Below, one piece after another: positions 15,504 through 32,098 of a DNA stretch of 64,000 bases. The position numbers and the translations under genes are program-made. Every line of letters starts with the position of its first letter. Positions within the stretch are counted from its first letter, which is position 1. Origin of the DNA: Desulfobacterales bacterium (GTDB lineage Bacteria > Desulfobacterota > Desulfobacteria > Desulfobacterales > UBA5852); contig CAXXVS010000003.1 in the NCBI GenBank assembly GCA_963674755.2, forward strand, positions 1,280,001 to 1,344,000, read 5' to 3'. Under the pieces are notes generated by a model. The model searched no databases. It was given only the letters and a program-made list of their open reading frames with translations, and was not told the origin of the DNA.

Positions 15504-16613
15504 TCAGGCGGACTGACCTTTCACCAGTTGGTCATGCATTTGTCGGGAGTGGGTTTTCTTGCGGTCCGAAGCCTCCCTGATGGTCTTGAAGATGGCGGCC
15601 GGTTTGTTCTCGACCCCATCGAAGTCGTACAATTCGATGGTTTTGTCCCGAGCGTCGGCCATGATGGCACGACCCACGGGCGAACGGGTGATGACGGTGG
15701 TCCAGCCTTCCTCGGCGCCCAGTCCGCCAAAGGAGATATCCGCGTATTCGGCGGAATAGTCCGGGCAGTAATGGCAGGCATAGCGCTTCATGAACTCCAG
15801 CTTGTCCAGCGGAATCAATTTCTTCCCGCCCGTATTGAGCTTGATGATCAGGTGGCTGCGCAGGTTGACTTTGACCACATCCTCCCACTTAAACCCGCCG
15901 ATGGTCTCCAACTCTTCCTTTTCCTTGGCATCGAAAAGGAAATTGCCTGAACAGAAGAGGCCCAGGGTGTAGCGGATCGAATCCGAGGGCACGATGCCCA
16001 GGGCTTCGATTTTGCGCAGGGCCTTGATCTGGCAGGGCGTACCCACCAGGGCCACCCGGCGCAGCCCCCGTTGCACCATGGGCCGGAACTCCTGCACGGT
16101 GGGGGCATAGGTGGAGTAGTCATGCCCGAAATGCTTCATGCCGTGGGAGCTGTCCAGGTAAAAGCCGGCGGCATCGATGATTTCCTGGCGGGACGTGGCC
16201 AGCAAGGGATCGCGCTCGAACGGCCCGGTTTGGCGGGTGACGATGGCCCCGTCGATGTGGCCCCGGTCGAACAGGTGCACCAACAGGGCGGTCACCACGC
16301 CGCCGTCGGTGGCCTTCTGCCGGATGGCGGGATCCTTGGCCCGGGCTACGGTGGTGTCCAGGACATGTCCCATGGGGGGTTCCCAGCCGGCGACCTTTTT
16401 GGTTTCCTCCTGGAGTTCGTCGATTTCAGGGCAGATGCTGTAGCACAGCCCGCACTCGATGCATTTGTCACGGTCGGCAAAGCGCGGCACGCCTTCTTCG
16501 CTCAATTCCAGGGCCCCGTAGTTGATGGAGGTGCAGAAGGTGACGCAGCCGCCGCAATGGTGGCAAAGCCCGGGTTCCTGGACTTCCTTGATCAGGTTTT
16601 CAAAGGTCTTCAT
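15504..16613 (-). CDS. Coenzyme F420 hydrogenase/dehydrogenase beta-subunit-like (FrhB/FdhB family) Fe-S flavoprotein
   Basis: CHHCGGCVTFC and CIECGLCYSICP ferredoxin motifs; DGGVVTALL, VGTPCQ, GLFC, ACHYCPDYSAEYADISFG. Confidence 0.88.
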   Translation of the reverse strand: MKTFENLIKEVQEPGLCHHCGGCVTFCTSINYGALELSEEGVPRFADRDKCIECGLCYSICPEIDELQEETKKVAGWEPPMGHVLDTTVARAKDPAIRQKATDGGVVTALLVHLFDRGHIDGAIVTRQTGPFERDPLLATSRQEIIDAAGFYLDSSHGMKHFGHDYSTYAPTVQEFRPMVQRGLRRVALVGTPCQIKALRKIEALGIVPSDSIRYTLGLFCSGNFLFDAKEKEELETIGGFKWEDVVKVNLRSHLIIKLNTGGKKLIPLDKLEFMKRYACHYCPDYSAEYADISFGGLGAEEGWTTVITRSPVGRAIMADARDKTIELYDFDGVENKPAAIFKTIREASDRKKTHSRQMHDQLVKGQSA

Positions 16614-16621
16614 GTCGCCTC

Positions 16622-17551
16622 CTACACTTCAGGCCTGGGGTAAAGACCGGCGGCTTCGACGATGCCCGGGACTTTCTCTTCCCATTCGATGGCCATGATG
16701 TGGAATCCCCGGACGCCTTCACATTCCTTTAGGCGCTGGATGGATTCGATGCACATTTTGATGCCCTCGTCGGCCTGCTTGTCCTTGGGGGTGTCCGCCA
16801 GGCGTTTGACCACCTCATCCGGCACATCCATGCCCGGTACGCGGTTTTTCATGTAGCGCGCCATGCCGGCCGATTTCATGGGTGTCAGCCCGGCCATGAT
16901 GGCACACTTTTCATGCAGGCCGCGATCCACGACGCCCTTCATCCATTCCTCGAACTTGTCGAGGTTGTAAATGCACTGGGTCTGGATGAATTGGGCCCCG
17001 GCCTTGACTTTCTTGGCCAGGCGGGCGACGCGGATTTCAAAGGGATCGGCAAAGGGGTTGGCGGCCGCGCCCACGAACATCTGGGGCGGACGTTTGATAT
17101 CGTCGCCCCCCAGGAATTTGCCCTGGTCGCACATGAGGCGCACGGTTTGCAGCAGCTGCATGGAGTCCAGGTCATGCACGTTCTGCCCTTGGCTGCTGTC
17201 CCCGAAACTCTGATGGTCGCCCGACAGGCATAAAATGTTGTTGATATCCCAGGAGGCCGCCCCCAGAATGTCGCTTTGCAGGGCGATGCGGTTGCGGTCG
17301 CGGGTCACCATCTGCAGCACCGGCTCCAGCCCCAGGGTCTTCAAGCGGATGCAGACCGCGAGCGAACAGGTGCGACAGACCGAGGTCTGATTGTCGGTGA
17401 TATTGATGGCGTCCACGTAATCCTTGATCATTTCGGCCTTTTCAACGATGGCCGTGGGATCGCTGCCGCGGGGAGGACCGCATTCGGACGTTACGGCGAA
17501 GTGACCCGCAGCCAGGACTTTTTCCAGTTTGCTCGGTGTTTTAGCTGTCAT
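16622..17551 (-). CDS. metF: Methylenetetrahydrofolate reductase catalytic subunit
   Basis: ECGPPRG, INITDN, RDRNRIALQSD, LSGD, KKVKAGAQFIQTQ, GFHIM. Confidence 0.93.
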   Translation of the reverse strand: MTAKTPSKLEKVLAAGHFAVTSECGPPRGSDPTAIVEKAEMIKDYVDAINITDNQTSVCRTCSLAVCIRLKTLGLEPVLQMVTRDRNRIALQSDILGAASWDINNILCLSGDHQSFGDSSQGQNVHDLDSMQLLQTVRLMCDQGKFLGGDDIKRPPQMFVGAAANPFADPFEIRVARLAKKVKAGAQFIQTQCIYNLDKFEEWMKGVVDRGLHEKCAIMAGLTPMKSAGMARYMKNRVPGMDVPDEVVKRLADTPKDKQADEGIKMCIESIQRLKECEGVRGFHIMAIEWEEKVPGIVEAAGLYPRPEV

Positions 17552-18212
17552 GCTGCACATCCTCCCTGACGAGTTTGCGTGGACCTCCGGCGCGATCGGA
17601 AGACCAGTCCTTGATGGGGGTGAGTTTTTCGTAGTCGTCCATGCGGCCCAATAGCTTCAAGCGGTCCACAATGAGCTGCCAGGCGCAGTCGACATCTTTG
17701 CTGATTTCGCATTTCCCGTTGGTGGAGCCCCCGCAGGGGCCGTTCATGACGCGTTTGGCGCAGCGGGCAATGGGGCAGATGCCGCCGGTCTGGGCCAGGA
17801 TGCACTGGCCGCAGGCCTGGCAGCGCTCGGTATAGAGTCCCAGTTTCTCGACCGCACCCAAAAAGGTGGTGTTCAGGCCCGGGTAGATCGGTTTGGGGTA
17901 TTTCTCCGCCATGAACTGCACACCGATGCCGCAGGCCGTGCTCAACACGGCATCCGCCCACTCGACGTGCGCTTCGGTCTTTTCGAAAAATTCATGCTCG
18001 CACTGGCGTTCGATGCCGGAATCCTGAATTTCCATCTCGACGCCTTCCTGGGTGGCCTTCATGCGCAGCAGGGAGGCCAGGATTTCGGCTTCCTTGTTGC
18101 CCCCTTGCTGACAAACGGCGACACAGGTGTTGCAACCGAACACCAGGACCTTTTTGTGGCCTTTGATGGTCTCCCATAGCTCTTCAAGAGGTTTCTGTTC
18201 GCCCACGATCAT
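17541..18212 (-). CDS. metV: Methylenetetrahydrofolate reductase Fe-S/Zn subunit
   Basis: GCNTCVAVC, ACGIGVQ, CQACGQC...GGICPIARCAK..NGPCGG...KCE...CAW; overlaps metF. Confidence 0.9.
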   Translation of the reverse strand: MIVGEQKPLEELWETIKGHKKVLVFGCNTCVAVCQQGGNKEAEILASLLRMKATQEGVEMEIQDSGIERQCEHEFFEKTEAHVEWADAVLSTACGIGVQFMAEKYPKPIYPGLNTTFLGAVEKLGLYTERCQACGQCILAQTGGICPIARCAKRVMNGPCGGSTNGKCEISKDVDCAWQLIVDRLKLLGRMDDYEKLTPIKDWSSDRAGGPRKLVREDVQHDS

Positions 18213-18718
18213 GGCTGTTTTCTCCTTTCCTGCGCCTGAAGTGCAAGCCGTATGGGAGAAGGACCGAGTTGCTGGATCCTTTCCGTGAATTCATTGCAGA
18301 TTTCCGCCCATCTCGGCCCCATGGCGGCCGACAAATTATACATCGCGAGGCGTTCGGGATCGAGGCCGACCTTGGGGAGAATGGTTTTCAGATAATTGAC
18401 GCGCTTGGCTGCATTGAGATTTCCTTCCAGGAAATGGCATTGGCCCTCCAGTCAGCCGGCGACGAACAAGCCGTCCACGCCCCGTTCAAATGCGCGCAGC
18501 ACATAGCTGTGGTCCAGCTTGCCCGTGCAGGGCATGCGGATGATTTTGACGTTGTGAGCGTAGGACAACCGCATGACGCCGGCCAGATCGGCTGCGGCGA
18601 AGGCACAGTAATGGCAGGCAAACGCGAGAATGCTGGGGTCCCAGTCGGCCGGGATTTCCCTCGGGGGTTCTATGGGGGGGGCTTCCTCAGCGACGGCCGC
18701 TTGCGCTTGTACGGTCAT
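18209..18718 (-). CDS. mvhD: MvhD-family [2Fe-2S] subunit, selenoprotein (in-frame UGA at 18452-18454), 169 aa
   Basis: FACHYC..AAD.AG, RMPCTGK, DGLFVAG-UGA-LEGQCHF; the frame continues GNLNAAKRV...PERL..FTERIQQLGPSP to a TGA overlapping the metV ATG. Confidence 0.9.
18410..18451 (-). promoter_or_regulatory. Bacterial SECIS-like hairpin
   Basis: After the UGA: CTGGAGGGCCAATGCC-ATTTCC-TGGAA-GGAAAT; stem starts 16 nt downstream, G-containing loop. Confidence 0.7.
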
Positions 18719-18759
18719 GGTGATCGTTCTCCCTGTGGGTGTGATTGAGGGTTGTTCAT

Positions 18760-21700
18760 TCAGGCCTTTTCAAAGACATCTTCCGTGGCGGCATCGACCA
18801 TGGCACGGATCTGTTCATCCGTGAAGTTGTTCACCTGGAAGGCCTTGGCCGGGCAGATGCCGGCGCAGATACCGCAGCCGGTGCAGATGACCTCGTTGTG
18901 GCTCACCTTGCCGTCCTCGTCGATAAAGGGCGAGCCGAAAGGGCAGACCCGGAAACAGGCCAGGCAGGACATGCAGATATCCCGGTTGTGTTTGGAGATG
19001 ATGCCCGAAACGCTCAGCCGGTCGTGGGAGAGCAGTACCCCCGCCCGCCCGGCCGCGGCCAGGGCCTGACTGATCGTCTCATCAAGATTTTTGGGGGCAT
19101 GTGCCAGACCGGCCACATAGAGCCCTTCACTGGGGAAATCCACCGGCCGCAGTTTGACATGCGCCTCCAGAAAGAACCCATCCGGGTTGCGGGTGAGTTT
19201 GTACTGTTTGCCGATTTTTTCCGTCAGCGGGTGGGGCCGCAGTCCGGTGGAGAGGACGACCATATCGGGGTGCAGGCGAATATCCCGGTTCAGCACGTAG
19301 TCGAAGGTCGTGACCTGGAGACGCTCGCCGCCGGTCTCCACCTGGGGTTTGTTCTCCGGCTCAAATCGGACGAAGAGGACTCCGACTTCCCGGGCCTTCT
19401 GATAGTAGTCCTCGCGCAGGCCATAGGTGCGGATATCGCGATAGAGAATCGTGACCTGGGCCGACGGCGATTTCTCCTTGATGGCGATGGCGTTTTTAAT
19501 CGCGTCCTGGCAGCAGACCCGCGAGCAGTAGTTCAGCGGTTCCTCGCGGGATCCGACACACTGGATCATGAGATAGTGTTTCCCTCCCGGGTCGAGCCCT
19601 TCGGCGATTTGTTTCTCAAGCTCACGCTGGGTAATGACGCGGTCGCTGTCCTTGTAGCCGTATTCCTCAGGTTCATATTCGGTACCCCCGGAGGCCACCA
19701 CGATGGCGCCATGATCGAATTTGTCGCCGTTTGTCAGGGTGGTTTTAAAGCCCCCCACAAATCCACCGGTGGTTGCCACTTCCGATCCCAGGTGGACATT
19801 GATCTTGGGGTGGTTTTCCACGGCGGCGATTTTTTCTTTAACAAAGGCCTGGACATCGCTGCCGTCCAAGGTGCGGTAGACATTCCCGGCCAACCCGCCC
19901 AAACGCTCGTTCTTTTCGACGATATGGATATCGAATCCCTGGTCGGCCAGGGCGATAGCGGAGGTCATGCCGGCCACACCGCCGCCGATGATCATGGCGG
20001 CCGGGGTAACGGGTACCGAATCGGTTTGCACCGGCTGCAGGTAGCGGGCCTTGGCCACGTTCATTTTGACGATTTCAGTGGCTTTTTTGGTCGCAATCTC
20101 CTTCTGTCCCATATGGCACCAGCTGCACTGCTCGCGAATATCGGCCAGCTCGAACAGGTATTTGTTCAGACCGACTTCCCGGATGGTGTCCTGAAACAGG
20201 GGGGCATGGGTGCGGGGTGTGCAAGAGGCCACAATGACACGGTTGAGCTTGTGTTCGTTGATCAACGCCTTGATTTTCTCCTGGCCGTCGGGCGCACAGG
20301 CGTACATCAGATCGTCGGAATAGGCCACATTCGGCACGGAGCGCATTTCTTCCGCGACACCTTTAACATCCACGGTCTGGGAAATGTTGATGCCGCAGTG
20401 GCAGACAAAGACGCCGATGCGCGGTTCTTCGCCGGCCACCTCCTTTTCATCGGGCAGTTCCTGAACGGTGATTTCCGTACCCCGGGCTTCCCCCAGGAGG
20501 GCCATGCTGCGGCCGGCCACGGCGCTGCCCTGGGCTACGGTCTCCGGGATGTCCTTGGGCCCCTGGTAGGTGCCGGTGACGTAGATCCCCGGCCGCGTGG
20601 TTTCCACCGGCCCGAAGGTTGTCGTCTTGGCAAAGCCGTGGATGTTGGGTTCAATGCCGAAGGTGCGGGCAAATTCAGCTGCATCGGCATGGGGTTGAAA
20701 CCCGATGGAGAGCACCACCATGTCGAAGATTTCCTCGATCAGAGTGCCGTCTTCGGTGGCAAATCGCAGAATCAGGCTGCCGGTGTCCGGATCTTGCTTG
20801 ACGTCGGAGATCATGGTGCGGCGGTAGACCACGCCATATTGGTTTTTGGCTCGATCGACGTATTTGTCGAAATCTTTGCCGAAAGCCCGCATTTCCATGT
20901 AAAAAACCGTGGGCTGAATGCGGCCGTCGTGTTCCTTGGCGATGACGGCCTGTTTGGTGGCGTACATGCAGCACACCGACGAGCACCAGGGGTTGGCGTT
21001 GTGCGGGTCCCGCGATCCGACACATTGGATCCAGGCCACCTTGCGGGGGTGTCGTTCGTCGGAGGGGCGTTTGATTTCGCCGGCGAAAGGGCCGGAAGCG
21101 GACAAAATGCGTTCGAACTGGAGCGAGGTGACGACGTTGGGCCAGCGGCCGAATCCCAGTTCCTGGCGCACCCGCGGGTTGTAGCGATCCAGGCCGGGGC
21201 TCAGGATGATGGCGCCCACTTGCAGGTCATAGTTCTTGGCTTCATCCTCGAAGTTGATGGCGCCGGCGTCGCAGAATTTCTCACAGGCCTTGCAGCGGCC
21301 CCGCTGCAGGTAGAGGCAGTTGTCGGGATCGATGACACGGGTGTTGGGAACGGCCTGGGGCAGGAGGGAGTAGATGGCCTTGCGTTTGCTTAAGCCCTGC
21401 TCGAATTCGCTGACCACCAGCTTGGGACATTTTTTCTCGCAGGCGCCGCAGCCGGTGCATTTTTCGGCATCCACATAGCGGGGCTTCTCGTGCACGGTGA
21501 CGGTGAAGTCGCCCGGTTCGCCTTCCACGGCGGTCACTTCCGCCAGGGTATGGAGGACGATGTTGGGGTGCCGTCCGACTTCCACCATTTTGGGGGAGAT
21601 CATGCACATGGAGCAGTCGCCGGTGGGGAAGGTCTTGTCCAGCATGGACATGGTCCCGCCGATGGAGGGATCCCGCTGGATCATGTGGACCTTGAAGCCA

Positions 21701-21795
21701 CTGTCGGCCAGATCGAGGGCGGCCTGCATCCCGCCGATGCCGCCCCCGGCAATCAATACCGATCCGCGTTTGGTGCTAGTTCCCTTTTTCGTCAT
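18760..21795 (-). CDS. hdrA: Heterodisulfide reductase subunit A-like, large (two FAD modules)
   Basis: GGGIGG and GGGVAG dinucleotide folds, LDKTFPTGDCSMC, QCVGSR..CSSVCC/CSRVCC, GVFVCHCG, IREQCSW, several CxxCxxC ferredoxin motifs. Confidence 0.95.
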   Translation of the reverse strand: MTKKGTSTKRGSVLIAGGGIGGMQAALDLADSGFKVHMIQRDPSIGGTMSMLDKTFPTGDCSMCMISPKMVEVGRHPNIVLHTLAEVTAVEGEPGDFTVTVHEKPRYVDAEKCTGCGACEKKCPKLVVSEFEQGLSKRKAIYSLLPQAVPNTRVIDPDNCLYLQRGRCKACEKFCDAGAINFEDEAKNYDLQVGAIILSPGLDRYNPRVRQELGFGRWPNVVTSLQFERILSASGPFAGEIKRPSDERHPRKVAWIQCVGSRDPHNANPWCSSVCCMYATKQAVIAKEHDGRIQPTVFYMEMRAFGKDFDKYVDRAKNQYGVVYRRTMISDVKQDPDTGSLILRFATEDGTLIEEIFDMVVLSIGFQPHADAAEFARTFGIEPNIHGFAKTTTFGPVETTRPGIYVTGTYQGPKDIPETVAQGSAVAGRSMALLGEARGTEITVQELPDEKEVAGEEPRIGVFVCHCGINISQTVDVKGVAEEMRSVPNVAYSDDLMYACAPDGQEKIKALINEHKLNRVIVASCTPRTHAPLFQDTIREVGLNKYLFELADIREQCSWCHMGQKEIATKKATEIVKMNVAKARYLQPVQTDSVPVTPAAMIIGGGVAGMTSAIALADQGFDIHIVEKNERLGGLAGNVYRTLDGSDVQAFVKEKIAAVENHPKINVHLGSEVATTGGFVGGFKTTLTNGDKFDHGAIVVASGGTEYEPEEYGYKDSDRVITQRELEKQIAEGLDPGGKHYLMIQCVGSREEPLNYCSRVCCQDAIKNAIAIKEKSPSAQVTILYRDIRTYGLREDYYQKAREVGVLFVRFEPENKPQVETGGERLQVTTFDYVLNRDIRLHPDMVVLSTGLRPHPLTEKIGKQYKLTRNPDGFFLEAHVKLRPVDFPSEGLYVAGLAHAPKNLDETISQALAAAGRAGVLLSHDRLSVSGIISKHNRDICMSCLACFRVCPFGSPFIDEDGKVSHNEVICTGCGICAGICPAKAFQVNNFTDEQIRAMVDAATEDVFEKA

Positions 21796-22666
21796 CTTGC
21801 TCCAACTCCTTCAAGAGTGTTGTGCCGTCGATGAAATGTCGATCGGTCTGCAATTCCTCCGGCGGAATGCCTATGGCCGCCCCGATGATCTCCGTGATGA
21901 AAAATACCGGCAGGCGCTCTTCGATGTCGTTTTTCAGGCAGAAGGTCTCCTGCTGGGCATCCAGATTCATCTGACACATGGGGCAGGTGGTCACGAAGCT
22001 GTTGGCGCCGCGGGTCACGGCGTCCTTCATGATCCGCGCCATCAAGTTGTGGGACGTCTCCGGGTCGTTCACGGCGGCCGAGGCGCCGCAGCAGGCCGTC
22101 TTGTGATTCCAGTCCACGGTCTTTATTTTCAGCGCCCCCAGGACCCGTTCCATCCCCTGGGGGTTTTCCACATCGTCGGGCACTGGCACGGTGTAGGGAA
22201 ATCGTGTCAGCATGCACCCGTAGTAGCAGACCGGCCGCAATCCGGTGAGTTTCTGGACCACGCGGTCCTTCAGCGCCCCGGCTGCGATGCGGGCTTCGAG
22301 GGCTTCCAAAATGGAGGAGACCTTGAGAGCGCCGTTGACGGGGGCCCCGAGCTCGCTGTTGATCTCGGCCTTCAGGGTCCCATCATCGGCCATGCGCTGC
22401 TGGGCCACCAGGGTGCGCGAGTAGCAGGCCGAGCAGGGGATGACCATCTCCGCGAACCCGGCACGCTGGGCGATGCCGATATTGCGGGCCGGCATGGCCG
22501 TGGCCATGAAATCGTCCACCTTGCCGGCCGAAGTGGCGCCGCAGCAGTTCCAGTCCTCGATTTCCACGAGTTCCGCGCCCAGCTCCGCGAAGATGCGCCG
22601 GCTCTGGACGTCGTAGAGGGCCGACGACTGCTGCAGGGAACATCCAGGGTAGTAGGCTAGTTGCAT
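21776..22666 (-). CDS. hdrB: Heterodisulfide reductase subunit B
   Basis: YYPGCSL, WNCCGA, PCSAC, YYGC, CCGA, CPMCQ (CCG domains); GAGGAG RBS. Confidence 0.93.
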   Translation of the reverse strand: MQLAYYPGCSLQQSSALYDVQSRRIFAELGAELVEIEDWNCCGATSAGKVDDFMATAMPARNIGIAQRAGFAEMVIPCSACYSRTLVAQQRMADDGTLKAEINSELGAPVNGALKVSSILEALEARIAAGALKDRVVQKLTGLRPVCYYGCMLTRFPYTVPVPDDVENPQGMERVLGALKIKTVDWNHKTACCGASAAVNDPETSHNLMARIMKDAVTRGANSFVTTCPMCQMNLDAQQETFCLKNDIEERLPVFFITEIIGAAIGIPPEELQTDRHFIDGTTLLKELEQDDEKGN

Positions 22667-22738
22667 GATGCTCCTCTTCTCCTCCGAGCCATTTTCAAAA
22701 CGCTCCATCGGAAACGCCCTGCAAACGGCCCCTGTACG

Positions 22739-23353
22739 TTAATGAGTGGCACGTTGTTTGGATTTTCGTTGCAGCGCTTTGATTTCCTTGCGTCCCTTGG
22801 CCACCAGAAAGCCGAAGTGCATTCGCCGCAGGCGTGTCATTTCCAGGCCGAGGTGGGCCTGGGCCTTGATTTCATCGAAAATAGCGCCGAACGCTCTGGT
22901 TTTGATGTTGCGCAGGGCGAACTTCATTTCGTAGGCCCCCATGAATTCCATCTCGTTCACCCGTCCCCAGCGCAGACCGGAGTGGACGAAGGCATCGTGG
23001 AAATCGGCAATCTTGGGCTGCAGCGGTTCGAGATGTTCTTCTTTGGCCATCTTCTTCAGCGTTTCGGTGATGCGGGCCGTCTGGATGTCGTTGGGGCATC
23101 TTGTGCCGCAGGTGTAACAAGAGACACATTTCCAAACGAGCTGGTTGCTCAAGGCCTGATCGCGGTCGCCCAGGACCACCATCCGGATCAGCAGGTTGGG
23201 GGTGAAATAGTCGGTTTCATCCCCCACGCTGCAGCCGGCCGCACAGCGGCGGCACTGATAGCACGCACTGAGGTTCTGGCCGGAGCGCGCCATTACCTCG
23301 GCCAGAAAGGGTTGGGTTTGAGCGGGATTGATGTCGATAGCGGGTGCGGCCAT
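22739..23353 (-). CDS. hdrC: Heterodisulfide reductase subunit C
   Basis: CYQCRRCAAGC and WKCVSCYTCGTRCP. Confidence 0.92.
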   Translation of the reverse strand: MAAPAIDINPAQTQPFLAEVMARSGQNLSACYQCRRCAAGCSVGDETDYFTPNLLIRMVVLGDRDQALSNQLVWKCVSCYTCGTRCPNDIQTARITETLKKMAKEEHLEPLQPKIADFHDAFVHSGLRWGRVNEMEFMGAYEMKFALRNIKTRAFGAIFDEIKAQAHLGLEMTRLRRMHFGFLVAKGRKEIKALQRKSKQRATH

Positions 23354-23538
23354 GAATGATTCCTCCCCGTTGCGGGATGCGAAGGCTTTACCTGACGGCG
23401 GGGCGCCTTCCATGGGAATGACACACTGAACAGACCGGCATGCGCGGAAAACCATGTTCAGTCGTGCTGACGATCACTGGCGGACAACGGCAGTTTACCG
23501 GGATTTAAAGGTCCGGAAAATCCTGGGAGGTCAAAAAA

Positions 23539-25148: not shown

Positions 25149-27284
25149 TCAGAGCACTTTGACCACCGCCAAGGTGATGTCGTCCTCCTGGTGGGGGCCG
25201 GAAAAGGCGTTTACGGCACTGAATACGGCATCCCGGATGGTGTGCGCATCGCAGTCGTGATGCTCCCGGACGATCTGGCAGAGACGATCCTTGCCGAACA
25301 TTTCCCCCTGGGGATTGAAGGCTTCCCAGATGCCGTCGGTTCCGATGACGATGACTTGCCCGGCGGCACCCATCGGCCTGGAGGAAGTTACGAAATCATA
25401 GTCCGCTTCAATCCCCAGCGCCATTCCCTCGCCGGTCAGCTCCGCGAACTGGTCGGTACGGGGGTCATACAGCAGGGCCGGGTCGTGGCCGGCCCGCACC
25501 CAGTGCAACCGGCGGTGGGCCATGTCGAATTCCAGATAGAAGAGCGTGATGAAGTCGCCGGTTTTCGACGTGTCCGGAAACAGCAGGCGATTGACCAGGG
25601 TGATCCGACGGGCCGGGTCGGCCTCCAGGATCGACATACTGCGAATCATGGCGCGCGCTGTGGTCATCAGGAGGGCTGCGGACACTCCATGGCCGGAAAC
25701 ATCGCCCACCACCACGGCCATGGACGTATTGCCGTCGGCGCCGCTTGGGAAGACATCATAGTAATCACCGCCGGTTTGGTCGCAATAATGGCTGTCGCCG
25801 GCCAGATCCAGACCGGGCAGCTTGGGGGCCTGGACCGGGAGCAGGTTGCGCTGAACCTGGCGGGCGAGTTCCATGGATTGGCTGAGATACCAATGGGCTT
25901 CGAGCCGGGGCACGATGTCGTTGAAAGCATTGATCAGGGTGTCGCGCTCGTCGCCGGTATGCTCGTTGATGCGTACCGTGAAGTCCCCGGTGGATAATCT
26001 GTTCCAGGCCCTGACCATAACGTAAAGCGGTCGCAGAATGGTTCGGGTGCCGATCCATCCCACCAGGAGGACCAGCACCAGCAGCAGGGCCGCGATGATG
26101 CCGGTCACGCGATAGATGTGATGCGTGTGGTCCAGAACGTTTTTGCCCACCTGATCCGCGAGGGAGGAAACCAAACTTTTGGGGACGATCAGAATAATCC
26201 AGAGGGCTGTATCCACCGGGGCGTGAAATCGGGCGAAGGCCCAGATGGAGGGGCGGGTGTTGTAAGGCAACTCCATGGCGCCGCTGCCCTGCTTCTCAAG
26301 GGCGTCGACCAAGGCCTTATCCTGGGACGGGTCGGAAAAGCGGAAAAAGGTCTCCCGGCTTTCATTCGGGAAGTCGCGATTGCCATCGCGTGGACTGCCG
26401 CTGGCGATGATTTCGAGCTTCTGGAGGCCCTCGTCGTTTTCGGTTTCGGGGATGACAAGGAAGGCCAGCGTGTCTTGGGACCACTGGGATTGCAGTTGAT
26501 CCATCTGCATAAATTCGCCGGGCAGCATATCGATGGCGGCGACGCCGATAAAGCGGCCCTGTCCGTCGCGAATCGGTTCGGCCACGGTAAAAACCAGATC
26601 TTGTGTCGAGCTGTCCTTATGGGACAGCCAGGTCAGCTTTCCGTGCTGTTTGGTCTCCACATACCAGGGGCGTTTCCGGGGATCGAATCCCGCGCCAATA
26701 TGACCGTGTCCGGGAAAGGAGATATGCAGTCCGTTCGCCAGACCGATGTATACCCGGTGGGCTACCGCCTGGTTGACCTGGAAGATATCCTTGATAATCG
26801 GCGTGAGCTTCTGAAGGCGTACAATTTGCGGCTTCAGAACATTTTCCTTGCCGGCCGGTATCACGACCACCGGGGCGCTGGTGCTGACGGCCGACGGCAT
26901 CAGGACGCCGCCGGCCGTTGCACGGCTGTAGCGCCATGACATCTGCACGTCCGGCGGTGCTGTTTCGGGGTGGTCGAAATCGTGCGGGGTATAGAACGGC
27001 TCCTCCGACGGAAGGGCCGGCGAGGCCAGAGCATTCGCGGTGCTGCCCGCGAGATACTGGAGGGAGAGTTGCAGGCTGGCGACATGCTGGCTGATCGCAT
27101 CGGCGGATACCCGGGCGCTTCGTGTCAGATCCCGACTGAGGGCGGCGGTCTGCTGGGTCCGGGCGTCGTGTGAGAGCGCCGCTCCCAGACGGTTGATGCT
27201 CTGTCGGCTGGTGACGGTGATGATCAGCAGCGGTGTCAGGCTGAAGGCCAGCAGAATGATGAAGACTTTGTAGCGGATGCTCAT
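25149..27284 (-). CDS. Membrane Cache-HAMP-PP2C (SpoIIE/RsbU-like) phosphatase
   Basis: Two TMs, FDPRKRPWY dCache motif, HAMP, GGDYYD, GDVSGHG, RAGH, TDGIWE, DDIT. Confidence 0.9.
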   Translation of the reverse strand: MSIRYKVFIILLAFSLTPLLIITVTSRQSINRLGAALSHDARTQQTAALSRDLTRSARVSADAISQHVASLQLSLQYLAGSTANALASPALPSEEPFYTPHDFDHPETAPPDVQMSWRYSRATAGGVLMPSAVSTSAPVVVIPAGKENVLKPQIVRLQKLTPIIKDIFQVNQAVAHRVYIGLANGLHISFPGHGHIGAGFDPRKRPWYVETKQHGKLTWLSHKDSSTQDLVFTVAEPIRDGQGRFIGVAAIDMLPGEFMQMDQLQSQWSQDTLAFLVIPETENDEGLQKLEIIASGSPRDGNRDFPNESRETFFRFSDPSQDKALVDALEKQGSGAMELPYNTRPSIWAFARFHAPVDTALWIILIVPKSLVSSLADQVGKNVLDHTHHIYRVTGIIAALLLVLVLLVGWIGTRTILRPLYVMVRAWNRLSTGDFTVRINEHTGDERDTLINAFNDIVPRLEAHWYLSQSMELARQVQRNLLPVQAPKLPGLDLAGDSHYCDQTGGDYYDVFPSGADGNTSMAVVVGDVSGHGVSAALLMTTARAMIRSMSILEADPARRITLVNRLLFPDTSKTGDFITLFYLEFDMAHRRLHWVRAGHDPALLYDPRTDQFAELTGEGMALGIEADYDFVTSSRPMGAAGQVIVIGTDGIWEAFNPQGEMFGKDRLCQIVREHHDCDAHTIRDAVFSAVNAFSGPHQEDDITLAVVKVL

Positions 27285-27446: not shown

Positions 27447-27462
27447 TGGCCTGGATCTTGCT
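27447..27462 (+). promoter_or_regulatory. Probable sigma54 promoter of the actin-like/PBP operon
   Basis: TGGCCTGGATCTTGCT (GG-N10-GC with TTGC); AT-rich tract at 27390-27425. Confidence 0.65.
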
Positions 27463-27551
27463 AATCCCTATTTCCGATCATTTTTCGGCCCATGCATAGC
27501 CAAGTGCTGCGGTTTGCCGGGCGGTATGACAATTTGTTGTGAGGTGATTCC

Positions 27552-28598
27552 ATGTCTTCTGGTACCATTGCGGCAGGGAAAAAGACAAGCCCATCTTCCG
27601 GCGGGTCGCGGCAGCCCATCGGCGTGGATATCGGTACGGCCAATATCGTCGTTTACATGAACGGTCAAGCCGGCGCCAAGGCCCAGATGGAAGCCAATGC
27701 CTTTTTTACGGTGCCGGCCCTGCCCAACACGCGCAAGATTCTGGAAACCAAGGCGGTACGATTCTTTGAAAAGGACGACCGCCTGCATGTCATTGGCAAC
27801 GCGGCCGAGGAGTTTGCCAGCATCCTGGGAGGAACGACCCGTCGTCCCATGGAAAGCGGCCTGGTCAACCTGAAGGAGAGCGACAGCATCCGTGTCATCC
27901 AGGCCATTTTGGATCCCATGATCCCGCCGCCGGCCCAAAAAGACCAACCGCTCTGGTTCAGCGTGCCGGGGGAGCCGGTGGGCCAGTCCGGCGCCATCAT
28001 TTTCAACGAATCGATTTTCAAATCCTATCTCAAAGGGCGCGGATATGCGCCACGCGGCATCAACGAGGCCATGGCCGTAATCATCGCGGAACTGACCGAT
28101 CAGAACGCCACCGGGATCGGCATCTCCCTGGGGGGCGGGATGTGCAATATCTGTTTTTCCTATCTGTCGATTCCGGCGGTCACCTTCAGCATTCCGAAAG
28201 GGGGCGACTCCATCGACCAGACCGTGGGCCTTTCGGTGGGGGAGTCCGCCACCAAGATCAAAGGCATCAAAGAGCAGGAACTGGATCTGAGGGCTGCCCC
28301 CCGGAACAACATCGAACATGGGCTGCATGCGGCCTATGACGACCTTTTCACCCGTCTGGCCCGGAGCCTGGCGGAAGTTTTCAGGGGGGCCGATACCATG
28401 CCGCGCCTTAAGCAGGCCGTGCCGCTGGTGTTGAGCGGCGGTACCGTGCTTCCGCCTGGCAGTCGGGAGCGATTTGAAGCGATTCTGGACGAGGTGGAAC
28501 TGCCGGTCCGGATCGCGAAGGTCATCCAGGCCAGGGAACCGCTGTTGGCCACCGCCAAAGGCGCTTATATGATGGCCGTTGCCGAAGATGAAAAGTGA
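27552..28598 (+). CDS. Actin-fold ATPase, volactin/MamK-like rather than MreB/FtsA
   Basis: Phosphate-1 IGVDIGTANI, RRPMESG, connect INEAMAV, phosphate-2 GISLGGGMCN, GGDSID, adenosine VLSGGT, EPLLATAKGA; GAGGTG RBS. Confidence 0.85.
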   Translation: MSSGTIAAGKKTSPSSGGSRQPIGVDIGTANIVVYMNGQAGAKAQMEANAFFTVPALPNTRKILETKAVRFFEKDDRLHVIGNAAEEFASILGGTTRRPMESGLVNLKESDSIRVIQAILDPMIPPPAQKDQPLWFSVPGEPVGQSGAIIFNESIFKSYLKGRGYAPRGINEAMAVIIAELTDQNATGIGISLGGGMCNICFSYLSIPAVTFSIPKGGDSIDQTVGLSVGESATKIKGIKEQELDLRAAPRNNIEHGLHAAYDDLFTRLARSLAEVFRGADTMPRLKQAVPLVLSGGTVLPPGSRERFEAILDEVELPVRIAKVIQAREPLLATAKGAYMMAVAEDEK

Positions 28599-30933
28599 TC
28601 CGCCCAAAAGCGTCGCCATCTATGCCGCTAAAACCGTGCGGGGGCAGATCATTGCCCGGTCATTGGCCCTGTGCGGCATTGCGGTGAGCCTCGATACGCG
28701 GCCGGAAGCAGCCCTTGCCAGGATCGAAAAGGGCGAAGCCGGGCTCCTGCTGGTGGATGTCAACAATCACTTGCAGGCGGAAAGCGAACTCATTGGCTCC
28801 CTTGCCCGCCACCTGGCGGACAGTCTGCTGATCACGCATACGGATCCTCATGACCGGGCCACCCTGGAAGCGTTGGGCATCGATTCCCAAAATTGCATTG
28901 AGGGCCCCCTGGACCCGGAGCAGATCTATGTTGCCGTGGAGGCGTTTTTTGCCGCGGGGGGTGGTTCGGGGTCTGCCGCGCGCCAGCTCCATGGAAAACA
29001 GTGGCGCATGGGTGAGCGGGGTCGGAGGATGCGACGCCGGGCCGGTAAGGTATTCCAGCGCGCTTTGCAGGCTTCGGGTCACAGGGTCGGACGGTGGCGC
29101 ATGACCATCATGCCGTGGATGACGGCGCTGCGGCCGGTGCGTCATTTTCTCATGGTTACGGGTTTTCTGGCCGCCGGCGGGGCGGCCGGCTATCTCTTCT
29201 GGTGCCTCTCCACCCTGCCCGACATCGATCGCCTGAACCATTTCTCACCGTTCAAAGCCTCCAAGCTGTACTCCTATGACAACCAGCTTTTGGCCGAGCT
29301 CTACGAACAGCGGCGCACCCCGGTGGTCCTCAAGGACGTGCCGCCGCATGTGCGCAAGGCCTTCATCGCCGTGGAGGACGCCCGTTATTTCCAACACAGC
29401 GGTATTGATCCCATCCGTATTGCCGGAGCCCTGTGGGCGGATATCAAAGCCGGTGAATATCGTCAGGGCGGCAGCACCATCACCCAGCAGCTCTCCAAGA
29501 TGATCTTTCTGGAATCTGAGAAAACGATTACCCGCAAGATCAAGGAGATGGCCATCGCGATCCAGATGGAACGGCGCTATTCCAAGGACCGTATTCTGGA
29601 GCTCTACCTCAACCAGGCCTACTTCGGCAGTCAAACCTACGGACTCCAATCGGCCGCCGAAGCCTATTTCGGGAAATCGGTGGGGCAATTGACGCTGGCC
29701 GAAGGGGCCTTGCTGGCGGCCCTGCCCAAAGCGCCGAGCGCCTACTCCCCCTTCCAGAACCCCGAGCGATCGCGCTACCGGCGAAATTTCGTCCTGCAGC
29801 GCATGCAGGCCAACGGGTTGATCTCCCGGGCGGAGTGCCAGGCGGCCATGCAGGCGCCCCTGCCCACCGTGTTCCATGGCCGCGTCTTCCAATCGCCTTA
29901 TTTCGTCGACTTTTGTCAAAAACGTCTGGAAGAAACCTATGGCGACCGTCTCGCCACCAGTGGTCTCACGGTTTACACCACCCTCGATGCCCGGCTGCAG
30001 GCCGCCGCGGAAAGCGCTATTCAACACGGCGTGGGGGCGCTCGCGGAACGGGGAATCGCGAATGTCCAGACAGCTTTGGTGGCTCTGGCCCTCGACACGG
30101 GCCAGATCAAGGCGATGGTGGGCGGCACGGACTATGGCCGCACCCAGTTCAATCGTGCCACCCAGGCTCTGCGGCAGCCGGGTTCGGCCTTCAAACCGTT
30201 TGTTTATCTGGCGGCCTTGCAGAAAGGATTGCGACCGGATTCACGCATCCAGGATCTGCCGGTGGCCGTATCGGTGAACAACGGCCGGCAGACCTGGCGG
30301 CCCCGCAATTACACCGGGCGCTTCAGCGGCGAAGTGACCCTGAAAGAAGCCCTGACACGATCCCTCAACGCGGCAACCGTTCATCTGGCCCTGCAAGTGG
30401 GGCTCACGGACATCATTGAAACAGCCCGCCTGGTGGGGATTCAGAGCAAATTGCATGCGGTCTATCCGACGGTATTGGGGGCCTCGGAGGTGACCTTGCT
30501 CGAACTGGTGGCCGCCTATGGGGCCCTGGCCACCGGCCGGCGGATCGTGCCGGTTTGCATGGATCGGATTATCGACAAGGGGGCCGCCACCATCTGGGAC
30601 CCCGGCATCCCGCCGACCGCCATTCTGCCGGCTACCTCGGTTGCGGCGATCCGCGAGATGCTGGCCGCGGTGATCAGCGACGGAACGGCGCGGCGTGCCC
30701 TTAGCTTGGGGCGCCCGGTCTACGGCAAGACGGGCACCACCAATGGCAATGCCGATGCCTTGTTTGTCGGATTCGACGCATCGCTGGTGGTCGGGGTATG
30801 GGTGGGGCGGGACGATCGTCTTCCCATCGGACCCAAAGAAACCGGCGCTCGCGCGGCGCTGCCCATATGGATCGAATTCATGAAACGGGTTCCGGCCGCC
30901 GGGATGCGGATGGCCGCCGTCAACATTCGGTAG
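28588..30933 (+). CDS. Class A penicillin-binding protein (PBP1A family) with N-terminal receiver-like domain
   Basis: GT51 motifs EDARYFQHSG, GGSTITQQLSK, RKIKE, ILELYLN; transpeptidase SAFK, SLN, KTG; single TM; start overlaps the upstream stop. Confidence 0.92.
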   Translation: MKSDPPKSVAIYAAKTVRGQIIARSLALCGIAVSLDTRPEAALARIEKGEAGLLLVDVNNHLQAESELIGSLARHLADSLLITHTDPHDRATLEALGIDSQNCIEGPLDPEQIYVAVEAFFAAGGGSGSAARQLHGKQWRMGERGRRMRRRAGKVFQRALQASGHRVGRWRMTIMPWMTALRPVRHFLMVTGFLAAGGAAGYLFWCLSTLPDIDRLNHFSPFKASKLYSYDNQLLAELYEQRRTPVVLKDVPPHVRKAFIAVEDARYFQHSGIDPIRIAGALWADIKAGEYRQGGSTITQQLSKMIFLESEKTITRKIKEMAIAIQMERRYSKDRILELYLNQAYFGSQTYGLQSAAEAYFGKSVGQLTLAEGALLAALPKAPSAYSPFQNPERSRYRRNFVLQRMQANGLISRAECQAAMQAPLPTVFHGRVFQSPYFVDFCQKRLEETYGDRLATSGLTVYTTLDARLQAAAESAIQHGVGALAERGIANVQTALVALALDTGQIKAMVGGTDYGRTQFNRATQALRQPGSAFKPFVYLAALQKGLRPDSRIQDLPVAVSVNNGRQTWRPRNYTGRFSGEVTLKEALTRSLNAATVHLALQVGLTDIIETARLVGIQSKLHAVYPTVLGASEVTLLELVAAYGALATGRRIVPVCMDRIIDKGAATIWDPGIPPTAILPATSVAAIREMLAAVISDGTARRALSLGRPVYGKTGTTNGNADALFVGFDASLVVGVWVGRDDRLPIGPKETGARAALPIWIEFMKRVPAAGMRMAAVNIR

Positions 30934-30979: not shown

Positions 30980-31558
30980 TTAGATCGCCTTGGCTTGCGG
31001 AGCGATAGGCCCGCTCACGATGGATGCATGTGCGATCGCTTTCGTTGCCGGATCGGCATCCATGGCCGCGAAGGCGTCTGCCAGCTGGACCTGATTCCGG
31101 CCCCCGGTTTTGGCCTTATAGAGGGCCTGGCCGGCCCAGCCGACCAGCGCCTCCGCGGGCGTAAGGTGGTCGGGCACACCGCCGGCCACGCCCAGGCTGA
31201 CGGTGGCTTTCAAGATGGCCTGTCCGCTCTTCAACCGATGGGCCGCTATTTCCTGCCGCAGGGATTCCGCCAGGACGGCGGCATCTTCCAGCGGTGTGCC
31301 CGGGAGCAGGATGGCAAATTCCTCGCCGCCATAGCGGGCGATCACATCGGTGCAGCGTTTAAAGGACGTCCGCAGGATGCCGCAAAATAGGAATGCCAGC
31401 CAGGCCGGGTAGGCGATGGAAGGCTGCTGCTGGTGGAAGCCCGTCGCGAAGACGATAATGCTCCAGATGGCCACATAGACCGGAATCCCGGGGATCGAGC
31501 GTTCCACCAGATCCCGGGACAATCGTTCCCTGAATTGCGCTTTCAGACCGTGTGTCAT
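30980..31558 (-). pseudogene. Internally deleted membrane diguanylate cyclase
   Basis: Two N-terminal TM segments joined directly to DVIARYGGEEF...ATVSLGV...ALYKAKTGGRN; the N-terminal half of the GGDEF domain is absent. Confidence 0.75.
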
Positions 31559-31621
31559 ATGTTGTCTATACCGGTTTCCGCTGCACCGGTTCCCCTTTTG
31601 ACACCATTGCGCGAGGTTGCC

Positions 31622-32098
31622 ATGGACCAGGATTCCCCGAAACCTGCCGGGACCGTTATCGCCCTCTCCGTGAGCAAATCCAAAGGTGAGAAAAAAAGCA
31701 ATATCGACTCCGGCCGGTTTATCGTAAATCACGGCCTGGCAGGCGATGCCCATGCCGCCGACTGGCACCGTCAGGTTAGTTTGCTGGGCGTCGAGAGCAT
31801 TGCCAAAATTCAGGCGGCCGGCATGGATGTGACGCCCGGTAATTTCGCTGAAAACGTGACCACCGCCGGGTTGCGCCTTTGGGAGCTGCCCATCGGCACC
31901 CGGCTCCACCTCGGCGACGAGGTCCGGCTCGCGGTCACCCAGATCGGCAAGACCTGCCATCGACGCTGTCAGATCTTTCATCAGGTCGGCGACTGCGTGA
32001 TGCCCCGCGAAGGCATTTTCGCCAGGGTGCTGCAAGGGGGCACGGTTCGGGTCGGCGATGCCATTGCGATCGTTGATGGGGCGTCTGACCCACAATAA
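31622..32098 (+). CDS. MOSC domain protein
   Basis: GLAGDAHA..WHRQVSLL, PGNFAENVTT, QIGKTCH..C, DCVMPREGIF. Confidence 0.9.
   Translation: MDQDSPKPAGTVIALSVSKSKGEKKSNIDSGRFIVNHGLAGDAHAADWHRQVSLLGVESIAKIQAAGMDVTPGNFAENVTTAGLRLWELPIGTRLHLGDEVRLAVTQIGKTCHRRCQIFHQVGDCVMPREGIFARVLQGGTVRVGDAIAIVDGASDPQ

Follow-up and report, generated by a model that had tools for sequence, protein, structure and literature searches.

Can a filament-forming protein of the actin fold place a class A penicillin-binding protein (PBP)? This question is raised by two overlapping genes of a Desulfobacterales bacterium, which lie in a stretch of 64,000 nucleotides (assembly GCA_963674755.2, contig CAXXVS010000003.1, positions 1,280,001 to 1,344,000 of the forward strand), here called the window. 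The upstream gene encodes an actin-like ATPase of 348 amino acids that belongs to the Volactin/Mad28 family (27552..28598, plus strand; ATG start, TGA at 28596-28598). The downstream gene encodes a class A PBP of 781 amino acids, counted from its ATG and recognised by Pfam and NCBIfam domains (28588..30933, plus strand). An earlier note, made from the sequence alone, had described an actin-fold ATPase whose stop codon overlaps the start of a bifunctional PBP, and had seen in the two genes a candidate module for cytoskeleton-guided wall synthesis. The overlap was confirmed, and it amounts to 11 nt between the PBP ATG at 28588 and the actin TGA. The longest form of the PBP open reading frame (ORF) opens at TTG 28579, and ATG 28588 is the likely start. 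In our judgement, it is rather likely that this additional class A synthase is recruited or positioned by filaments of the actin-like protein, with the pair under a sigma-54 promoter, the conservation of which is confined to the subclade of the window.

A conserved pair of an actin-like protein and a class A PBP

The gene order was compared in the best 80 of 505 matching stretches, of which 79 loci were kept; genes were chosen by cross-locus similarity and then clustered. In 22 loci as well as in the window, the actin gene is directly followed by a PBP gene, and the PBPs of these loci are 48-81% identical to that of the window. In 23 out of 23 actin-PBP pairs, the stop and start codons overlap by no more than 11 nt or are separated by no more than 10 nt. 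All 23 full-length PBPs, in which an N-terminal docking domain is fused to the synthase, contain complete transglycosylase and transpeptidase regions. In loci L016 and L073, the genes are ordered in the same way, but the docking domain is encoded by an ORF of its own, and L017 is truncated by the contig end within the PBP. In total, PBP pairing was found in 25 of the 79 loci. The PBP-linked loci are labelled as Desulfobacteraceae, Syntrophales, Nitrospirae, Aminicenantes and "Eubacteriales" metagenome-assembled genomes (MAGs), that is, as four phyla, and binning errors are possible among these labels.

A maximum-likelihood tree with 95 rows placed the window actin in one clade of 25 rows, supported by a Shimodaira-Hasegawa-like approximate likelihood ratio test (SH-aLRT) value of 98, and all 25 rows were PBP-linked. 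The conservation of the pairing in relatives that the earlier note had expected was thus borne out. A second clade of 21 rows contained the Mad28 references of the magnetotactic strains RS-1 and BW-1, together with loci that have a standalone partner. The gene order in this clade is actin, a gene for a protein of about 145 amino acids, and a gene for a ParA/MinD-type ATPase of about 300 amino acids. In five Desulfobacteraceae-type loci, genes for a HEAT-repeat and a coiled-coil protein lie upstream, which agrees with how Mad23 and Mad25/26 are described in bioRxiv 10.1101/2025.02.24.639979. A third clade of 35 rows comprised Desulfobulbales loci, the context of which includes HrpA and a pentapeptide-repeat protein, with a PBP of about 930 amino acids at a distance of 3-4 kb in 10 loci.

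Several arrangements outside the simple pair were observed as well. At L012:3149-9445 and L014:3183-9400, a Mad28-type actin, a standalone pseudo-receiver, a ParA/MinD ATPase, a PBP-type actin and a pseudo-receiver-PBP fusion are encoded in one array. A Ca. Magnetobacteriaceae MAG (L077:4321-7020) contains two tandem, diverged Mad28-type actin genes for 435 and 411 amino acids, which fits the mad28 duplication mentioned in PMC9376291. In the Desulfobulbales-type loci (L033, L034, L051, L053, L061, L063, L065, L070, L071 and others), the actin gene lies between a divergent gene for an HrpA-type helicase and a convergent gene for a pentapeptide-repeat protein of about 870 amino acids. The class A PBP of about 930 amino acids downstream in 10 of these loci has no docking domain, and its position could reflect a functional linkage or mere lineage synteny.

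The PBP of the window matched PF00912 (Transgly; 1.4e-68, 230 bits) at ORF residues 235-410, which form the glycosyltransferase (GT51) domain (29281..29808, plus strand), and PF00905 (1.4e-25, 91 bits) at ORF residues 499-724, which form the transpeptidase domain (30073..30750, plus strand). Its score with TIGR02074 (PBP_1a_fam) was 589.4 bits and thus above the cut-off of 508.75, and its score with the NCBIfam PbpC model was 508 bits, under the cut-off of 900. The wall-synthase motifs EDxxFxxHxG, GxSTxTQQ, RKxxE, SxxK, SxN and KTG are all readable in the translation. The description as a bifunctional PBP with intact catalytic motifs therefore stands.

The actin-like protein matched the Pfam family Volactin (PF25216) with 222.1 bits (E 1.6e-65; gathering cut-off 35) from position 3 to position 321 of the 321 profile positions. 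The MreB models MreB_Mbl (PF06723) and TIGR00904 reached 14 bits (cut-off 27) and 15 bits (cut-off 365.75), both at residues 22-39 only, and the scores with the NCBIfam MamK and salactin models were far under the cut-offs. When a profile of 111 family members was compared with solved structures, MamK was nearest (4e-11) and MreB was next (7e-8). Identities of the MreB, ParM and FtsA types were rejected on the Pfam/NCBIfam and profile scores. With Volactin at 222 bits against MreB at 14, and with MamK and MreB as the best solved relatives, the ATPase falls outside MreB, FtsA and EutJ, as the earlier note had supposed; EutJ is listed among the fold and profile matches. The AlphaFold 2 (AF2) model had a mean predicted local distance difference test (pLDDT) of 90.5 and a predicted template modelling score of 0.88, with a core of residues 23-347 and a predicted disordered stretch at residues 1-17 (pLDDT <50). 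Foldseek matched it about equally well to MreB, MamK and eukaryotic actin (TM 0.65-0.68, E about 1e-13). The protein thus has the actin fold and belongs to a family without a solved member.

All seven motifs that had been listed before are present in the translation, namely DIGTANI, NAFF, RRPMESG, INEAMAVIIAEL, GIGISLGGGMCN, GGDSID and SGGT. The reading of the phosphate-2 motif as S-x-GGG instead of DIGGG also proved correct: residues 190-196 are GIS-L-G-G-G (S-x-G-G-G), and the replacement of Asp by Ser is found throughout the family. Conserved residues of the ATP-binding site are D26, G28, T29, G194, G196, D222, G296 and G297, all of which are invariant, and E172. The Volactin family is large and almost wholly without annotation; a word search yielded 382 relatives, clustering at 50% identity gave 965 clusters, and 505 stretches were found in species-representative genomes. 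One member of 1160 amino acids (P0193) contains the volactin domain (residues 33-349) fused to Wzz and GNVR polysaccharide co-polymerase regions and to a ParA-like tyrosine-kinase-type ATPase, and is a second case in which this family is tied to an envelope-polymer enzyme.

The earlier note had likened the protein to haloarchaeal volactin more than to MreB. The likeness held at the level of the family (PF25216, 222 bits); however, by sequence comparison the closest characterised bacterial relative appears to be Mad28 of magnetotactic bacteria. A Solidesulfovibrio magneticus PF25216 protein of 395 amino acids (P0385) is 44% identical to the window actin over the whole actin core (BLAST, 1e-102). 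It is taken to be Mad28 of RS-1 because of the organism name, the length and the mass, as its computed mass of 42.6 kDa matches the 42.6 kDa given for Mad28 in PMC12713370. The homologue of Desulfamplus magnetovallimortis BW-1 has 403 amino acids, is 46% identical over the whole core, also belongs to PF25216 and is annotated as an MreB-domain homologue of the RS-1 gene. Mad28 is set apart by an S-x-G-x-G phosphate-2 motif, while MamK has D-x-G-x-G (PMC10653835). Filaments of Mad28 are formed in vivo, and polymerisation in vitro has been shown for the BW-1 protein (PMC10653835; PMC12713370). Its localisation follows cell curvature (PMC12713370), and it positions magnetosome chains at the curved membrane (PMC12713370; bioRxiv 10.1101/2025.02.24.639979). 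Volactin itself (VolA, HVO_2015) forms dynamic filaments in Haloferax volcanii and has a part in cell-shape change (PMC10869688).

A strict, magnetosome-associated Mad28 identity of the window protein was rejected. The tree groups the RS-1 and BW-1 references in the other clade. The N-terminal region of about 65 residues is missing, and window residues 1-17 have pLDDT values below 50. The host has no MamK, and the neighbours of the gene are a PP2C phosphatase, GGDEF and PAS proteins and others. The BLAST alignment opens at window residue 22 and Mad28 residue 68, and the window actin is without about 45 N-terminal residues of Mad28, and thus without the region that in RS-1 is reported to hold an amphipathic helix and to be required for filaments (PMC12713370).

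The docking domain and its predicted contact with the actin

The N-terminus of the PBP, residues 1-122 from the ATG (28588..28953, plus strand), is a cytoplasmic domain that was delimited by a hidden Markov model (HMM), AF2 and Foldseek. BLAST showed that the protein of about 145 amino acids encoded after Mad28-clade actins is homologous to the first 120 or so residues of the PBP. An HMM built solely from 20 of the standalone proteins encoded after Mad28-type actins matched the window PBP N-terminus at 5.5e-14 and the N-terminus in 23 out of 23 full-length actin-adjacent PBPs, and it matched 0 out of 10 PBPs of about 930 amino acids from the Desulfobulbales-type loci. In the host genome, the domain was convincingly found only once, with 121 bits; the next matches had at most 33.5 bits and are probably ordinary receivers. 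No fusion of the docking domain to N-terminally extended actins was found, and among the stored proteins only the window PBP matched either HMM. The N-terminal extensions of 10 long family members contain a zinc ribbon, a ParB-like helix-turn-helix stretch, a coiled coil or nothing recognisable.

A small gene has been described between mad28 and mad29 in magnetotactic Nitrospirota (PMC9376291), and in the Nitrospirota loci compared here it is the standalone pseudo-receiver gene that occupies this position. The ParA/MinD-type ATPase gene that follows the gene for about 145 amino acids fits Mad29, for which an ATPase domain has been reported (PMC9840458). The PBP N-terminus is homologous to the gene between mad28 and mad29, and therefore a conserved partner of the actin has been fused onto a wall synthase. 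The standalone proteins end in a conserved tail, L-x-x-D-L-K-x-F-L-x-L, in place of which the PBP fusions have a membrane helix. The tail is amphipathic-looking, e.g. at L049:7019-7453 and L038:7170-7595, and could be a membrane-targeting or ParA/MinD-binding peptide. It was also observed that the standalone domain and the following ParA/MinD gene together resemble a split CpaE/TadZ-type protein.

For PBP residues 1-185, AF2 (pLDDT 81.7) predicted a (beta-alpha)5 domain over residues 8-122 (block pLDDT 83-96), in which strands 8-13, 32-36, 53-57, 80-84 and 103-105 alternate with helices. Response-regulator receiver domains were at the top of the Foldseek matches and occupied at least 40 of the top 50 rows; two N-terminal domains of CpaE-type pilus assembly proteins (4dn6 and 4dad) were listed, too. 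No Pfam family, including the Response_reg model, was matched at E<=0.05 by the window domain or by two standalone homologues. In an alignment of 43 sequences, R18 and D57 were the sole invariant residues, and G19 and P110 were nearly invariant. D57 lies at the end of strand 3, which is the phospho-acceptor position in receivers, and is invariant in 43 out of 43 sequences. After strand 1 the window sequence reads A-A-K, and after strand 5 it reads L-D-P-E without a Lys, as matched by eye on the model. On this reading, the domain appears to be without the acidic pair that receivers have after strand 1 and without the Lys that follows strand 5, and it may therefore be called a pseudo-receiver, with the reservation that equivalent positions were judged by eye. 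The domain is followed by an Arg-rich, partly helical linker to the membrane (28954..29145, plus strand; AF2 helices 129-135, 143-162 and 170-180, pLDDT 45-80) and by a single putative transmembrane helix, roughly FLMVTGFLAAGGAAGYLFWCL (29146..29208, plus strand), which was judged by eye from the translation.

Complex prediction of the actin with the docking region yielded scores of 0.84, 0.85 and 0.85 in three runs, and all three controls yielded 0.00. Of 157 solved complexes, 116 attained the mark that the median of 0.85 reached, and so did 2 of 215 mismatched pairs; these calibration counts hold only roughly for user-built alignments, and the score expresses the confidence of the model and is not a measurement. 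The runs shared at least 76% of the contacts, and the partner pLDDT was at least 74. On the docking domain, the confident contacts involved residues 15-28, 59-60, 85 and 107-112, including R18 and P110, and the contacting loops are those around the phosphorylation site of a true receiver. On the actin, they involved residues 183-187, 204-209 and 281-288, all of them in the latter half of the fold and beside the phosphate-2 and adenosine motifs. Linker residues 157-164 of the PBP also contact the actin in the model, and the docking domain carries most of the confident interface residues. The check by complex modelling that the earlier note had suggested thus came out in favour of a contact with the cytoplasmic region of the PBP (0.85 against 0.00 for the best control), and a direct binding of the actin to the docking domain is a prediction supported in silico only. 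The part of the actin involved is presumably equivalent to subdomain IIA, at which RodZ binds MreB; entry 2wus is among the fold matches of the actin.

Promoter, expression and genomic setting

The actin gene is preceded by a ribosome-binding site, GAGGTG (27541..27546, plus strand), which was read directly from the sequence and lies 5 nt 5' of the ATG. Further upstream lies a putative sigma-54-type -24/-12 element, TGGCCTGGATCTTGCT (27447..27462, plus strand), which is proposed from the fit to the pattern and from its conserved position in the subclade; transcription would start near 27472-27474. The pattern alone is weak, as the window contains 4 matches where 1.33 are expected, and at least as many occur in 5 of 100 shuffles. 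However, all 9 members of the window's subclade have the element at a distance of 152-197 nt before the DIGT codon. The sigma54-type promoter named in the earlier note was therefore retained as an element that fits and is kept in the subclade, with the restrictions that the bare pattern is weak and that the element is confined to this one subclade. The host genome contains rpoN and 74 matches to enhancer-binding proteins, about 69 of them full-length. None of the 74 lies inside the window, and the nearest ones lie some 16 kb ahead of the window and immediately behind it. In the Syntrophaceae loci L020, L022 and L023, the pair follows a gene for a GAF-PAS hybrid histidine kinase on the same strand, in place of the sigma-54 element.

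Three rhizosphere metatranscriptome runs from three studies contained short contigs within both genes, with 0-1 differences. Two contigs from RNA libraries span the junction of the actin and PBP genes, with the proviso that DNA carry-over is possible; one of them (X1 record 4) covers 28564-28859 with 1 difference. Parts of the stretch that no contig covers, like the two runs with a word share of 0.05, are uninformative about expression level and habitat.

The host genome of 6.7 Mb is 97% complete and contains one gene of the volactin family. Its canonical mreB (505.8 bits) is found at another locus, next to mreC. It has six genes with a transglycosylase domain, five of them of bifunctional size, namely the PBP of the pair and four others. 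Within the genus, 5 of 13 genomes contain the actin, and three of the eight genomes that gave no match have a completeness of 95-98%. A sample of 401 genomes of the phylum contained about 10 strong matches and 15 above the cut-off. The actin-PBP pair is thus an accessory addition. All described or analysed magnetotactic bacteria have mamK, according to PMC10653835 and PMC9840458. The MamK profile search of the host found only its MreB, with 67 bits against a cut-off of 400, and other mam genes were not searched for; by this test, the host appears to be non-magnetotactic.

Fourteen neighbouring ORFs (15.5-38 kb of the window) were scanned for families, and signalling genes that are unrelated to the pair were found on the flanks. 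No mre, rodA, fts, par or mam families were found among these 14 ORFs, and for this region the corresponding claim of the earlier note holds. A Cache-HAMP-SpoIIE (PP2C) phosphatase gene (25149-27284, minus strand) is divergent from the pair and, among the loci compared, keeps its position in L010 and L011 only. A gene for a GGDEF protein (30980-32095, minus strand) is convergent with the pair. Further neighbours encode a PAS protein, an MFS_MOT1-family (molybdate-type) transporter, a hydrolase and a hybrid histidine kinase. An antisense ORF of 383 amino acids (27468-28619, minus strand) is longer than the actin gene and was rejected; no family match supports it, and we regard it as an artefact of the G+C-rich sequence. 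At 15504-23455 (minus strand), genes were found for methylene-tetrahydrofolate reductase (MTHFR) and its C-terminal partner, a flavin/FeS protein of 1011 amino acids, CCG-domain and 4Fe-4S proteins and an FrhB-type subunit; this cluster looks like an electron-transfer module of the methylene-tetrahydrofolate reductase / heterodisulfide reductase type.

Interpretation and comparison with known systems

We propose that the two genes would form a cytoskeleton-client module, which consists of a polymer-forming Mad28/volactin-type actin and an extra class A peptidoglycan synthase. The N-terminus of the synthase, which precedes its single membrane helix and faces the cytoplasm, would be a pseudo-receiver, the phosphorylation-site face of which would bind subdomain IIA of the actin. 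The filaments would capture the synthase and concentrate or position it, either along the filaments or at their ends, and the membrane-anchored synthase would in return tether the filaments to the membrane. The sites at which this one enzyme builds wall would therefore be set by a filament that is independent of MreB, and in the window's subclade the pair would be switched on conditionally from the sigma-54 promoter. Established by the analysis are the families, the fold, the gene overlap, the conserved pairing and the homology of the docking domain to the standalone partner of Mad28-type actins, whereas polymerisation, localisation, an effect on cell shape and an inducing signal are inferred for the window pair. 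A tethering by the PBP is plausible because the window actin is without the N-terminal region that Mad28 of RS-1 needs for filaments. As Mad28 localises by cell curvature, it is an attractive idea that wall synthesis may be placed at particular geometries.

Several observations weigh against this interpretation. The contact was predicted by one structure-prediction job with user-built alignments. The actin side of the interface does not exceed the remaining core in conservation (mean frequency of the top residue 0.65 vs 0.67), and conservation therefore backs the contact model on the side of the docking domain only. The interface residues T187, Y204, P208 and P284 are invariant, but they are so in the Desulfobulbales clade, too, where no docking-domain gene lies next to the actin gene, and they may therefore be structural. 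The pairing counts describe the nearest relatives and not the whole family, because the best 80 of 505 stretches were examined. The tree was obtained by a quick search with SH-aLRT values only and no bootstrap, and the Nitrospirae locus L037, which is PBP-linked, branches just outside the clade of 25 rows. The sigma-54 element was found in 0 out of 15 other loci of the PBP clade, and conditional expression is therefore not a feature of the whole module. The RNA evidence consists of assembled contigs, in which DNA carry-over is possible and from which strand, ends and level are unreadable.

A more far-reaching version can be formulated, which we regard as tentative and rather doubtful. The pair would be a self-contained, MreB-independent wall builder, in which curvature-sensing Mad28-type filaments place the class A synthase for a curved or differentiated cell form on a sigma-54 signal, and the pseudo-receiver would be a general adaptor of bacterial Mad28/volactin filaments. 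If this were true, the unnamed gene between mad28 and mad29 would tie Mad28 filaments to the membrane in magnetotactic bacteria, and the positioning of magnetosomes and of wall synthesis would be two uses of one ancestral pair of filament and adaptor.

The relation between the two proteins could also be the reverse. The filament would then have a job unrelated to the wall, e.g. with an inclusion, the nucleoid or a complex, and the PBP would serve it as a membrane anchor, with its synthase activity being incidental. This would agree with the reported role of Mad28, which positions magnetosome chains and not wall enzymes (PMC12713370; bioRxiv 10.1101/2025.02.24.639979), and the replacement of the tail of the standalone domains by a membrane helix in the fusions would be expected if the basic role were tethering. 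It would also agree with the finding that, in Caulobacter, the overproduced membrane anchor of PbpC substitutes for the membrane-targeting peptide of BacA (PMC12448750). However, any membrane helix would do for an anchor, yet the 23 full-length fusions have kept both catalytic regions at 48-81% identity, and the comparison of 79 loci revealed no candidate cargo gene that accompanies the pair throughout the clade. We therefore consider a mere anchor role unlikely.

Alternatively, the actin-fold protein may not form filaments at all, but act as a monomeric or dimeric ATP-dependent switch similar to Hsp70, EutJ or FtsA, which turns the synthase on or off via the cytoplasmic domain. The conserved ATP-binding motifs with the family-wide replacement of the phosphate-2 Asp by Ser, and the presence of EutJ among the fold and profile matches, could be read in this way, and so could the missing N-terminal region, as RS-1 Mad28 without that region made no filaments (PMC12713370). 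On the other hand, family members with the same Ser motif do polymerise, namely Mad28 of BW-1 in vitro (PMC10653835) and volactin in vivo (PMC10869688), and the fold model is equally near to MreB, MamK and actin, so that a switch is hardly probable. That the two genes are co-inherited neighbours without contact, e.g. in a stress regulon with a spare synthase and an unrelated ATPase, is very improbable. In its favour, the module is an accessory one with a patchy distribution (found in 5 of the 13 genus genomes and strongly matched in about 10 of 401 genomes sampled from the phylum), and gene neighbourhood alone is weak grounds for binding. Against it, genes homologous to the PBP domain come after Mad28-type actins at other loci, the interval from stop to start keeps within -11 to +10 nt in loci labelled as four phyla, and the complex prediction passed while all controls were at 0.00.

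If filaments of the actin indeed recruit or position the synthase, a dedicated pair of an actin and a class A PBP with a folded docking domain would represent a new route from the cytoskeleton to the wall, parallel to that of bactofilin and PbpC. Mad28, which is treated in the literature consulted as magnetosome-specific, would have a sister clade that is linked to a wall enzyme in non-magnetotactic bacteria, and this sister clade would bear on the origin of the magnetosome cytoskeleton. The fusion would also name a candidate partner of Mad28, namely the "hypothetical" gene beside mad28, which is unnamed in the Mad28 literature found. In the two-hybrid assay of Russell et al., Mad28 is reported to have bound only Mad25 among the proteins tried (bioRxiv 10.1101/2025.02.24.639979). 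Filament-guided wall synthesis and the Mad28 family were already known, whereas the pairing of an actin with a class A PBP via a fused pseudo-receiver is new; no description of the Mad28/volactin family paired with a PBP was found in a literature search that left subscription journals and Mad28 supplements largely outside.

Four known systems can be compared with the window pair. Mad28 of S. magneticus RS-1 and D. magnetovallimortis BW-1 shares PF25216, 44-46% identity and the S-x-G-x-G phosphate-2 motif with the window actin, and in both cases a member of the pseudo-receiver family comes next, as a gene after mad28 and as a domain in the window. In contrast to Mad28, the window actin belongs to a separate, well-supported clade, it has no mad29-type ParA/MinD neighbour, and its partner domain is fused to a wall synthase. 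The PF25216 model that is named after volactin of H. volcanii fits the window protein end to end. However, volactin is archaeal, acts in a cell without peptidoglycan and has other partner proteins, and the likeness is drawn via the Pfam model and not from a direct sequence comparison.

Class A PBPs are generally viewed as being outside the actin-guided Rod system. The Rod system of MreB, RodZ, RodA and PBP2 resembles the window pair in that a filament of the actin fold is coupled to wall synthesis, and the model docks the domain on actin residues 183-209 and 281-288, the part that corresponds to the RodZ site on MreB. Its client, however, is a pair of a SEDS (shape, elongation, division and sporulation) protein and a class B PBP instead of a class A PBP, and the window pair has no mreC, mreD or rodZ neighbours.

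The closest functional precedent is found in Caulobacter crescentus, where the bactofilin BacA recruits the class A PBP PbpC via an N-terminal cytoplasmic peptide (PMC12448750). As is proposed for the window pair, a cytoplasmic polymer binds the cytoplasmic N-terminus of a bifunctional synthase and so determines where the enzyme is located, and the client contributes to the membrane tethering of the polymer (PMC12448750). The two systems differ in their building blocks: in Caulobacter, a nucleotide-independent bactofilin is combined with a docking peptide of 13 residues (PMC12448750), whereas in the window an actin is combined with a folded, receiver-like domain of about 120 residues.

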